Shown in pieces: positions 5,748 to 14,254 of a stretch of 64,000 bases of DNA. The notes beneath the pieces were generated by a model. That model was not told the DNA's origin. It worked only from the letters and a program-made list of their open reading frames with translations, and ran no database searches. This stretch comes from Octopus vulgaris (lineage: Eukaryota). The DNA is taken from contig OX597823.1 in assembly GCA_951406725.2 (NCBI GenBank), forward strand, positions 64,542,001 to 64,606,000. The letters are read 5' to 3'. Numbering within the stretch: the first letter of the stretch is position 1; each line of letters begins with the position of its first letter. A program made the translations under genes and the position numbers.

Positions 5748-6320
5748 GAGTTGCTGTTAGAGCAGCAGAAATATTGGGTAAATTACTCTTACAAGGCAGA
5801 AAGATTTGTTTACAACCAACCATGGGACTCAAACCTATATCTCTCAAAGATGCTGGCTGAGTGTTTTACTATTAGGCTAAACTGCCTGCTGACGAATTCA
5901 ACTGACAAATTAGACACTAAATACTTTAGCTTTAGTGAACAACCATGTAAGGGTAATATACCCAGTGTTTCTGCTGTTCTAATGGCAACTCTGCATTTTA
6001 AAAAGTATCATCATCTTATTTGTGTCATACAATATACATTTTGATGCTTTGAATAAAAAACAAATATTTGTTTACCTTTATATGCGCATAGTTGTTCTAT
6101 GAAGCTAAAATATTTAGAGTCTAATTTTGCAGATTAATTTGTCAGTGGGCAGTTTAGCTTAATGGTAAAGCACTCAGACAGAGAATTTGAAGAATATGGG
6201 TTTGAGTCCCACAGCTGGTTGTTGGCAAATTTTTCTGCTTTGTAAGGGTGATTTATGCAGTATTTGTGCTGTTCTAATGGCACCTTTGCATTTGAAAAAC
6301 TTCACCTTCTTATTTCTATC
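5748..6320. repeat. Diverged fold-back with head-to-head tRNA-like segments
   Basis: 5748-5932 is the reverse complement of about 6100-6285. A tRNA-like segment lies at 6147-6220. A further direct partial copy lies at 5946-6020. Confidence 0.75.
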
Positions 6321-11051: not shown

Positions 11052-11144
11052 CACAATAAGGGTGAAAAAATTGAATATTAATTAATAACATCAATTTAAA
11101 ACACCAAGCGGCCTAGCATATAAAGATTGGGATACAGTAAAAAT

Positions 11145-11464
11145 TATTAATACAAGTAATGAGAGAGAGTCCACATGTGGTCACTCTAATGCTAGATATA
11201 GATGCACAAGGGAATCCACCACTAAAGAATTGTTCTCAAGAATTAATTCAACGCGCCAAGAATGTAAGCAAGCAGGACAAATGAAAAATAATGAAAAAAT
11301 AGAATCTATTTTTTGTTATTTTTCATTTGTCCTGCTCGCTTACATTCTTGTGCGTGTTGAATTAATTCTTGAGAACAATTCTTTAGTGGTGGATTCCCTT
11401 TGTGCATCTATATCTAGCATTAGAGTGACCACATGTGGACTCTCTCTCCTTACTTGTATTAATA
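11145..11464. repeat. Near-perfect 320-bp palindrome
   Basis: Arms 11145-11303 and 11305-11464 are reverse complements with only a few mismatches; centre at 11304. Confidence 0.95.
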
Positions 11465-11524
11465 TATATATGTATATATATATGTATATATATGCATGTG
11501 TGTGTGTGTGTATATATATCTATC

Positions 11525-12360: not shown

Positions 12361-12938
12361 CAGGGTTTTCAAAAAGTCTCTTTGCAGTGAATTCTTTTCA
12401 TCCTGTGCATGCACAACTTGGCTATCACTGCATGGCTGGCCGTGTGTCAGCCATTGTGGACCCTTCAGCGTGTTGACATGCTAACCATTGAAGAACGTAC
12501 GTTTTTTGTTGAATGTTGAATGTATTTGGAAACAAATACACAGATACTGTGAAACAGAAGTTCATTGAAACTTTTCCAAATATTGTTGTTCCACATCGTG
12601 ACACTGTGCAGGATTTGATAAGAAAATTTAGAAACACAGACTCAGTGGAAGACACACAGCAAGAAGTGGTAGGCCAACTGTTCTTTCAGATGAAACACTC
12701 TCAAATATTTCTGATAAACTGTTGGCAAGCCTGTCAAAGTTCTTACAAAAACTGTCACATAAAACAGAAATCAGCCTAGGAAGTGCTCACACAGCAGTAA
12801 AAAAGAAATTAAATTTCAAAACCTCTTATAAAGTTTTTTAAAGTCTTCTAAAGTCTAAAGTATTCTTTTGTAGTCTGAAACCATTTTATATTTATTTTGC
12901 AATAAAATATTTACTGCGGAGTGACGTTTTGAACACCC

Positions 12939-12940: not shown

Positions 12941-13004
<64 letters not shown>

Positions 13005-13143
13005 TTTTGCCATTTCAATATGGCTAATAGGGTGGATGCTACTGTAGTTTTTAGCCTCAGGAGGACACACTCCTCCAGCTGGCCATAGACACACTTTCTG
13101 TGTCCTGTCAGTATTTGCAAAGGGAAGTCATCCTTCCCGTCTT

Positions 13144-13213
13144 CAACTTATGATACACACGGACTCGAGTTTCGAGGTATTGACCTCTCGTCAGCGTGTG
13201 ACAATCATAGTTG
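13144..13213 (-). ncRNA. Type I hammerhead ribozyme, copy 1
   Basis: Minus strand CACACG-CUGACGA-GAGGU(CAAU)ACCUC-GAAAC-UCGA-GUC^CGUGUG: complete core, stems I/II/III and a GUC cleavage triplet. Stem I extends (caacuaugau / aucauaaguug) past an internal loop. Predicted cut between 13162 and 13161. Confidence 0.92.
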
Positions 13214-13496
13214 TCGCCGAGAATTAGATCTCCTTCACAAATACTTATACTTTTTCCAGCGTCCACTGTCGCTGATATTGAAAAAGTGAAATCAAACAAT
13301 GATAAATATCAATGTGAGTTATATACAGTAGCGGTAACACAACGTGACGTATTTTTGCCATTTCAATATGGCTAACCCCTAAGGGTGGATGCTACTGTAG
13401 TTTTTAGCCCCAGGAGGACACACTCCTCCAGCTGGCCATAGACACACTTTCTGTGTCCTATCAGTATTTGCAAAGGGAAGTCATCCTTCCCGTCTT

Positions 13497-13566
13497 CAAC
13501 TTATGATACACACGGACTCGAGTTTCGAGGTATTGACCTCTCGTCAGCATGTGACAATCATAGTTG
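13497..13566 (-). ncRNA. Type I hammerhead ribozyme, copy 2
   Basis: Same as copy 1 except CACAUG in stem I (a U-G wobble keeps pairing). Predicted cut between 13515 and 13514, 353 nt from the copy 1 site. Confidence 0.92.
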
Positions 13567-14254
13567 TCGCCGAGAATTAGATCTCCTTCACAAATACTTA
13601 TACTTTTTCCAGCGTCCACTGTCGCTGATATTGAAAAAGTGAAATCAAACAATGATAAATATCAATGTGAGTTATATACAGTAGCGGTAACACAACGTGA
13701 CGTATTTTTGCCATTTCAATATGGCTAACCCCTGTGTATCTGTGTGTATATATATTTAGTTTTGTTCTCTTTGTGATTATTTATTTAAAATTAAAATCAG
13801 ATTTTCATTTAATGACAGAACTAAATCCAATTAATCAAAAGCATATAATGAGATAAAAAAGATAATTCAAGTAGACCAATAGTGTGAATTTAGGTAGATC
13901 AGTTAAGGAAGTAATGTGCAGAATGATGATTGCAAAGAACTCTAAATTAATATTATTTTTCCTTTAACTTCAAGAAAGAAAACAAAAAATCTTAGCAATA
14001 AATCTTAGCATCTTTGAAAGTAAAGTGGTGTTAATTCCAAAATGTTGAAAATTAATTTCACAGAATTAATTCAAATGCTTTGAGGAAAATCTCATCTTCG
14101 TTTGCAGGTAAAGAGTGGGGTTACAACTAGATACATGTTTTGGCATTATTGGGCCTCATCAGCATGGCATAGTCAAACACAAACCTGTTTGGTCAGTCCA
14201 AAAGTATTTTCACTCTTTCATTTTGCATTCATCTTTCCATGTTATTATATTTGT

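Follow-up and report, generated by a model that had tools for sequence, protein, structure and literature searches.

The repeat locus and its hammerheads

The window examined here, the whole stretch of 64,000 nt from Octopus vulgaris (contig OX597823.1), contains a tandem repeat at 13002-13733, identified by TRF with a period of 353, 2.1 copies and 97% matches. Its units measure 348, 353 and 31 nt (2.07 units overall; GC content 42%), and between the two full ones there are a 5-nt indel and four substitutions, in agreement with a first-pass annotation, made from the letters alone, that had described two near-identical units and a partial third. On the minus strand, both full units match the Rfam model Hammerhead_1 (RF00163) along its full length, at 13156-13200 (32.2 bits, E 6e-6) and 13509-13553 (29.5 bits, E 5e-5). 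Both scores lie below the Rfam gathering score of 34 bits, and a default whole-window Rfam scan therefore missed the two hammerheads; the annotation had itself proposed this covariance model as a check. A type I hammerhead descriptor run over both strands of the 64 kb found these two sites and no others, each with the core CUGANGA / GAAA / UH, stems I-III and an open stem I. The features are collected in Table 1, in which unit positions u1-u353 correspond to window positions 13702 down to 13350, with predicted cleavage at u188/u189.

The predicted cleavage sites are 353 nt apart and the sole difference inside the ribozymes (13549) preserves pairing as a U.G wobble, both as annotated. The second helix said to extend the 6-bp stem I was likewise recovered, as an upper stem I helix that covaries among relatives. 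Two descriptions had to be qualified. Each full unit does carry a type I hammerhead with a full-length Rfam match, but its stem III consists of just 2 bp, around a palindrome, with a pairing probability of 0.00 in the monomer. The copy had also been called intact, which holds for the hammerheads of both full units but not for the whole element: one stem I carries the minority allele, and the 3' end falls short of the family end site A by 6-9 nt, within (TA)n, leaving the copy slightly worn.

Other repeats occur nearby. A long MITE-like inverted repeat lies at window positions 11118-11491 (arms 11118-11212/11397-11491 and 11208-11256/11352-11400). Directly left of the target, a relic at 12361-12937, which we take to be Tc1/mariner-like, has similar inverted ends and broken transposase-like frames. 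The right flank (13733-13755) combines TG/TA repeats with similarity to the end of that relic; duplication of the target, with 4-nt microhomology, is a possible origin. A tRNA-like sequence at 6147-6221 on the plus strand (Rfam 36.9 bits; tRNA-Leu with an odd anticodon according to ARAGORN) is probably a tRNA-derived repeat.

Table 1. Features of the retrozyme insertion (window coordinates)
Feature	Position	Strand	Remarks
Whole single-arm insertion	13002..13733	-	2.07 units; 5'-truncated at u323; 3' end u353
Type I hammerhead 1, stem I with one U.G wobble	13509..13553	-	predicted cleavage 13515/13514
Type I hammerhead 2, majority allele	13156..13200	-	predicted cleavage 13162/13161
Predicted 353-nt monomer between cleavage sites	13162..13514	-	predicted fold -123.1 kcal/mol, z -5.8
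Palindromic stem III strand	13514..13523	-	8 nt = 13516-13523; twin at 13163-13170
Internal copy of end site A (u6-9)	13341..13344, also 13694-13697	-	putative reverse-transcription start 1
Internal copy of end site B (u50-57)	13293..13300, also 13646-13653	-	putative reverse-transcription start 2
(TA)n tract, target site	12947..13001	.	at 3' end of element

A young family of non-LTR retrozymes

A search of the 2.8-Gb genome with the unit gave at least 158 matches from the best 40 of 2265 candidates. An exact 33-nt core is present in 439 genome copies and the next 33 nt (u189-221) in 827, against 0 for either control; the excess consists mostly of older subfamilies of 83-93% identity, and still older subfamilies lie at about 75-84%. 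Most young copies are 96-99% identical, and the ribozyme varies less (0.2-0.8%) than the remainder of the unit (1.4%). Copies are dispersed and range from monomers to multimers, the longest arm seen having about nine units. A young sister family of period 355 (L185-L214, e.g. L191, L194), about 69% identical, has A and B ends alike; its core begins with U instead of C3, the two central letters of stem III are both changed with the palindrome retained, and stem I and the upper helix are altered in pairs. This sister family was reached through a 73% relative in L059 that had been considered, and rejected, as a Penelope-like element (PLE).

The ribozyme structure was assessed on an alignment of 34 rows, comprising the two window copies and 32 of 39 dereplicated relatives (seven junction chimeras or cut copies were left out). 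Pairing was found in 92% of cells, against 30-49% in slid controls. Two-sided changes occurred in 14 of 39 pairs and the covariation score was reached by 0 of 500 shuffles, counts that reflect a few lineage events and not 34 independent ones. Stem II alternates between AU and GC across relatives, and its closing pair is unpaired in 23 of the 34 rows. The earlier claim of a young, multicopy non-LTR retrozyme is thus borne out by the 439 exact cores, the identity of the copies and the covarying stems.

Newt satellite 2 and Schistosoma SM-alpha are among the non-LTR retrozymes of metazoans. Others, from coral, mussel (350-390 nt) and axolotl (Rtz_331/Rtz_353), likewise consist of tandem non-coding units of 170-400 nt (PMC7229834), and non-LTR retrozymes have thus already been described in a mollusc. 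The octopus element shares with them a GC content below 50%, one canonical type I hammerhead per unit with a 2-bp stem III and a palindromic loop, the lack of LTR, PBS and PPT, a highly paired monomer and duplications of more than 4 bp (PMC7229834). In older octopus subfamilies the base of stem II is mismatched, as in axolotl HHR_Amex2. The assignment of the window repeat to this known kind of element is supported. Unlike those of metazoan non-LTR retrozymes, however, the octopus arrays are short and dispersed. The element has no open reading frame and is non-autonomous. Flank follows both arm ends, and no PLE-like frame encoding RT and GIY-YIG was attached to the arms in the loci examined; one locus that resembled pLTR-ORF-pLTR (L031, contig 2, cores 3.25 kb apart) proved to be a single copy split by a low-complexity insert.

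Literature searches, covering mostly work other than subscription papers and key supplements, found no cephalopod retrozyme. The giant squid genome has 235 Rfam hammerhead hits, given in the accessible text as a count without analysis (PMC6962438). The octopus genome itself seems rich in hammerhead-like motifs. Unrelated ones occur in random flanks (L088 near 690, minus strand; L089 near 200, plus strand), and a third hammerhead element (L215-L244), about 330 nt long, ORF-less and non-tandem, gave 954 first-look candidates. This element targets (TA)n, shows a recurrent 5' start and has its own pair of 3' ends, separated by about 90 nt; its far end has an AT-rich motif in common with retrozyme site B. 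A piece of it lies inside the junction of one retrozyme insertion (L011:2203-2312); this was rejected as proof of shared packaging, as the best copy is 10 kb away and local capture is equally likely.

Predicted folding of the unit

The 353-nt monomer is predicted to be stable and highly paired, with 0 of 100 shuffles folding as low. The zero pairing probability of stem III was obtained in five of five spans and in the circle, so that a single unit is not a ready-folded ribozyme. However, the palindromic stem III strands of neighbouring units can pair and form a double hammerhead. This was the MFE structure in two of five spans (inter-unit helix P about 0.57) and was not favoured in the other three, the whole 732 nt among them. 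Dependence of cleavage on a dimer is known behaviour of such motifs (PMC4209133; PMC7229834), and in a 2026 preprint eight of nine Xenopus dimers tested failed to cleave (bioRxiv 10.64898/2026.07.22.740005). A hairpin is also predicted at site A in the young unit; it is missing from the alignment consensus of relatives.

Insertion ends, arms and targets

The main locus set comprised all exact-core loci of contigs 1-3, 58 after removal of one segmental duplicate, and leaves out the window itself and one contig-4 locus. L014 and L028, both on contig 1 and separated by about 1 Mb, carry one insertion with identical, inverted flanks and represent a segmental or assembly duplicate. Arms ending at the cut escape selection by the core. 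A second set was therefore added, namely the 29 loci from contig 1 and a portion of contig 2 that contain u189-221 but lack the exact core.

Of 87 3' ends, 49 lie at site A (u6-9), 32 at site B (u50-57) and six elsewhere. The two sites are about 46 nt apart, internal to the unit and distant from the cleavage site. Half of the main-set insertions (29/58) are head-to-head and in 27 of 58 there is only one arm, which ends at A or B. Every main-set inversion with both outer ends fixed joins an A end to a B end (25/25; four more have one end off-site), as do 9/9 in the second set (four inversions with off-site ends) and 8/8 in the sister family (30 loci read by eye, one off-site). One site per arm is thus the rule in all 42 of 42 two-fixed-end head-to-head insertions. 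Arms are of unequal length and do not share either end point, with 5' ends spread along the unit; in the main set, 54 of 87 arms exceed one unit, 18 exceed two and five exceed three. Multimeric copies, which the first-pass annotation had suggested seeking elsewhere in the genome, are therefore common, and its proposal of spread by retrotransposition agrees with dispersed insertions that have fixed 3' and variable 5' ends. Each end site is a pair of alternatives separated by 3 nt (u6 or u9; u52 or u55), and which of them is used at one end of an insertion looks independent of the choice at the other.

A (TA)n tract touches 78 of the 87 3' ends and is the target at 77 of 87 loci. Among ten loci outside (TA)n, four have target duplications of 11-13 bp, a fifth in an AAT repeat being discounted; the cross-locus control reached a maximum of 7 bp (n=90; 0/90 at 9 bp or more). 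Two simpler schemes were rejected. A linear cleaved monomer as the usual template would give an excess of 5' ends at the cleavage site, and there were none at u189 (0/129) and three in u183-195 against 4.8 expected, a check that included the 29 core-less loci. Fold-back copying of one arm is contradicted by the fact that either arm can be the longer.

Local growth at the DNA level was also considered, with the repeat as a minisatellite or MITE-like element and the hammerhead as a relic. Inverted arms do look like terminal inverted repeats, Tc1/mariner also uses TA targets, some arrays (L020, L140) show local duplication patterns, and local amplification of PLE termini has been proposed (bioRxiv 10.64898/2026.07.22.740005). 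Terminal inverted repeats would not, however, differ in arm length and both end points, nor explain the 27 single arms ending at A or B; with the scattered 5' ends, the 11-13-bp duplications and an RNA structure that covaries, this explanation is highly improbable.

In LINE twin priming, one true 3' end is combined with a second, variable internal priming point. Mobilisation of the element by a LINE (RTE, CR1 or similar) in the manner of a SINE, with inversions produced by twin priming, would draw on LINE-like RT fragments in the fetched loci, and fixed 3' ends with variable 5' ends fit any target-primed process. The two fixed sites used strictly one per arm (42/42) are unlike twin priming, however, and a poly(A) or own repeat tail is absent, the 3' ends being internal to the tandem RNA. 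The unit gave no tRNA match that would mark the tRNA-derived head of a SINE; it has a D-arm-like hairpin, and by eye no conserved B box. LINEs were left open in PMC7229834, but the tail signature described below is unique to PLEs according to PMC11167929. LINE mobilisation is largely excluded, and we give it very little credence.

The insertion anatomy matches the 'tail' signature of PLEs. Their insertions consist of partial tandems with an inverted 5'-truncated partner and a 30-40-bp tail on one end, and their (TA)n bias has been tied to a CX2-5CxxC linker (PMC8557442). In vitro, a PLE protein nicks and extends both strands of AT-rich DNA, and initiates reverse transcription from two positions within the RNA, which delimit the tail and lie downstream of the hammerhead (PMC11167929). 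The octopus family resembles endonuclease-bearing PLEs (Neptune/Nematis, Poseidon PAc, Naiad; PMC8557442, PMC11167929) in its partial tandems, inverted 5'-truncated partner, one-end tail, AT-rich or (TA)n targets and hammerhead upstream of two starts. It differs from them in having no ORF, a canonical hammerhead with extended stem I instead of the minimal form, and a tail of about 46 nt as against 30-40. This Penelope-type anatomy, missed in the first-pass annotation, names the likely mobilising machinery. Two fixed 3' ends, strict A/B inversions and (TA)n targeting do not appear in the accessible parts of the retrozyme papers, and no report of a tail or A/B rule in retrozymes was found in the literature searches, which had the coverage given above.

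Templates of the insertions

Haplotypes were compared in 76 loci (260 monomer-phase segments), 22 of which had been chosen by likeness to the window copy. At eight subfamily-diagnostic sites, discordance was 2/809 within arms and 12/668 between arms of one insertion, as opposed to 29% between loci (26% among pattern-found loci only). Among 128 locus-private substitutions at multiply covered sites, 18 occur in two or more units where about one was expected, and all 12 repeated variants with cover in both arms are present in both. Haplotypes and rare variants common to both arms indicate that one RNA template, or one source locus, probably serves both. In addition, 14 private variants are present in every covering unit, including two in 5/5 units (L050) and one in 6/6 (L059). 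Variants in all units of an array point to a monomer step, most simply a circle, although a homogeneous source array could explain any single case, with the monomer step merely one generation earlier.

Other loci require more than one unit of template. L059 has two unit-specific variants in register across both arms, and L037, L080 and L043 share unit-specific variants one unit out of register; for these a single monomeric circle is insufficient and multi-unit templates are needed. The same PLE machinery might then spread the element from uncleaved multimeric transcripts, or by end-to-end jumps between cleaved monomers, with circles a side product or absent and the ribozyme of little weight. 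These four loci argue for such templates, as do the patchwork differences between units of the nine-unit array L140 and the finding that PLE ribozyme mutants insert normally, cleavage being dispensable and unprocessed RNA the main substrate (PMC11167929). However, the 14 all-unit variants require a monomer step somewhere in the lineage, jumps between molecules would mix haplotypes where arms are 99.8% concordant within themselves, and the ribozyme covaries down to 69% identity and is the less variable part of the unit. We therefore regard spread from multimers alone as rather unlikely, though a serious contender. Circles and uncleaved multimers probably both serve as templates.

That the unit RNA is circular is plausible by analogy with known retrozymes. 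In two runs guessed to be RNA, from different organisms of one study, contigs of 383 nt (353+30) were found on the unit. This length is expected from a closed one-haplotype path, but multimer RNA or tandem DNA gives the same, and the contigs are a hint only. At least half of the unit's words are contained in 20 runs of ten studies, none recorded as RNA, and none of the three runs guessed to be RNA covered the unique right flank, a result uninformative on expression. Runs X3 and X5 also contain contigs of 351 and 367 nt whose match is confined to the region immediately beyond the cut site, after which they continue into another hammerhead-like sequence; they probably represent further retrozyme families.

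Resident Penelope-like elements

Among 150 scored GIY-YIG matches (of 6136 candidates), 16 fall in a 781-aa frame with RT and GIY-YIG domains. This family (L144-L152) is very young and intact, has the CX2-5CxxC linker and (TA)n targets, and shows the A/B inversion with two end sites 40 nt apart (L149, L151). Its label as Neptune/Nematis is suggested by the linker motif only, since a homologue search with the protein returned 565 relatives, none named as a PLE clade. In two members (L147, L152) a second frame of 400-479 aa, lacking any significant match in Pfam, lies separately upstream, and by eye the pLTR holds only a degenerate hammerhead-like motif. In a second resident PLE family, a hammerhead variant is located about 130 nt upstream of the 3' end.

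No terminal repeat resembling the unit was found in 59 GIY-YIG loci (41 + 18, from the 150 scored), the unit being unlike any resident PLE terminus examined, and the helper is thus named by kind. The only match in these loci, beside a PLE in L154, was rejected as a parent: it is an old retrozyme fragment in its own right, with TA-rich ends that belong to it, and is located 600 nt beyond the end of the PLE. PLEs had already been named as likely retrozyme helpers (PMC7229834; PMC7761336; PMC11722881); in the accessible text of PMC7761336, retrozyme repeats show no motif that reveals the helper. A July 2026 preprint deduced a PLE origin in vertebrates from co-occurrence and pLTR homology, its main text containing no analysis of insertion ends. 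It relates Xenopus retrozymes to PLE pLTRs (bioRxiv 10.64898/2026.07.22.740005) and arrives at the same conclusion as ours, namely non-autonomous dependants of PLEs. However, the Xenopus case rests on co-occurrence, homology and a tree, and the octopus case on insertion anatomy and haplotype phase; the homologous pLTR that is the basis of the former was not found for the octopus family in the 59 loci. MRC1-type elements of Chlamys are also non-autonomous, multicopy, head-to-tail dependants of PLEs (PMC8557442), but they differ in being described without canonical hammerheads and in having 3' sequence in common with autonomous families.

Proposed mechanism

Taken together, these findings suggest that this non-LTR retrozyme is in effect a free-standing Penelope terminal-repeat module, spread through PLE machinery, a reading to which we assign a probability of about 0.8. 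The module would comprise a hammerhead followed by two internal reverse-transcription starts about 170 and 215 nt downstream. After transcription of tandem copies, neighbouring hammerheads may dimerise through the palindromic stem III, as in known families, and free 353-nt monomers, which a host ligase would circularise by analogy with PMC7229834. An endonuclease-bearing PLE protein, probably Neptune-like, would then nick both strands of AT-rich or (TA)n DNA about 11-13 bp apart. Both nicks would prime reverse transcription inside the same RNA, using site A in one case and site B in the other, as the end pattern and haplotype sharing suggest; two-site initiation is known from PLEs themselves, and its extension to a PLE dimer priming both nicks on one retrozyme RNA, with the circle a frequent template, is our proposal. 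Synthesis may continue through the cleavage junction to differing extents, so that an arm comprises between 0.1 and 9 units. The two cDNAs would be joined head to head, or one retained as a single arm as in the window, and the A-to-B interval would be the Penelope-type tail. That the family records precisely this, a Penelope dimer nicking both strands, priming A and B on one RNA and rolling round a ribozyme-made circle, we advance tentatively, at slightly short of even odds.

Implications

As just another mollusc retrozyme the family would be ordinary; the new part is insertion-level evidence on mechanism. The identity of the enzyme that mobilises animal retrozymes, and the role of the circle as template, have been in question since 2020. 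The origin of PLE inverted repeats and tails is likewise a question, for which PMC8557442 calls for mechanistic work and PMC11167929 provided the first in vitro PLE system. A short young family with hundreds of copies and internal variants makes the mechanism readable from the genome, and the one-site-per-arm rule and shared haplotypes are constraints rarely given by a long 5'-truncated autonomous PLE. With this family, the RNA, the two start sites to be expected and a set of candidate enzymes from the same genome are defined. It may also offer a compact natural cassette for circular RNA production or RNA-templated insertion. If the circle-rolling reading is true, it would provide direct insertion-level evidence that animal retrozyme circles are PLE transposition intermediates, explain the PLE inverted repeat and tail by one model, and supply a 353-nt minimal substrate mobilised without recognisable sequence in common with its helper.
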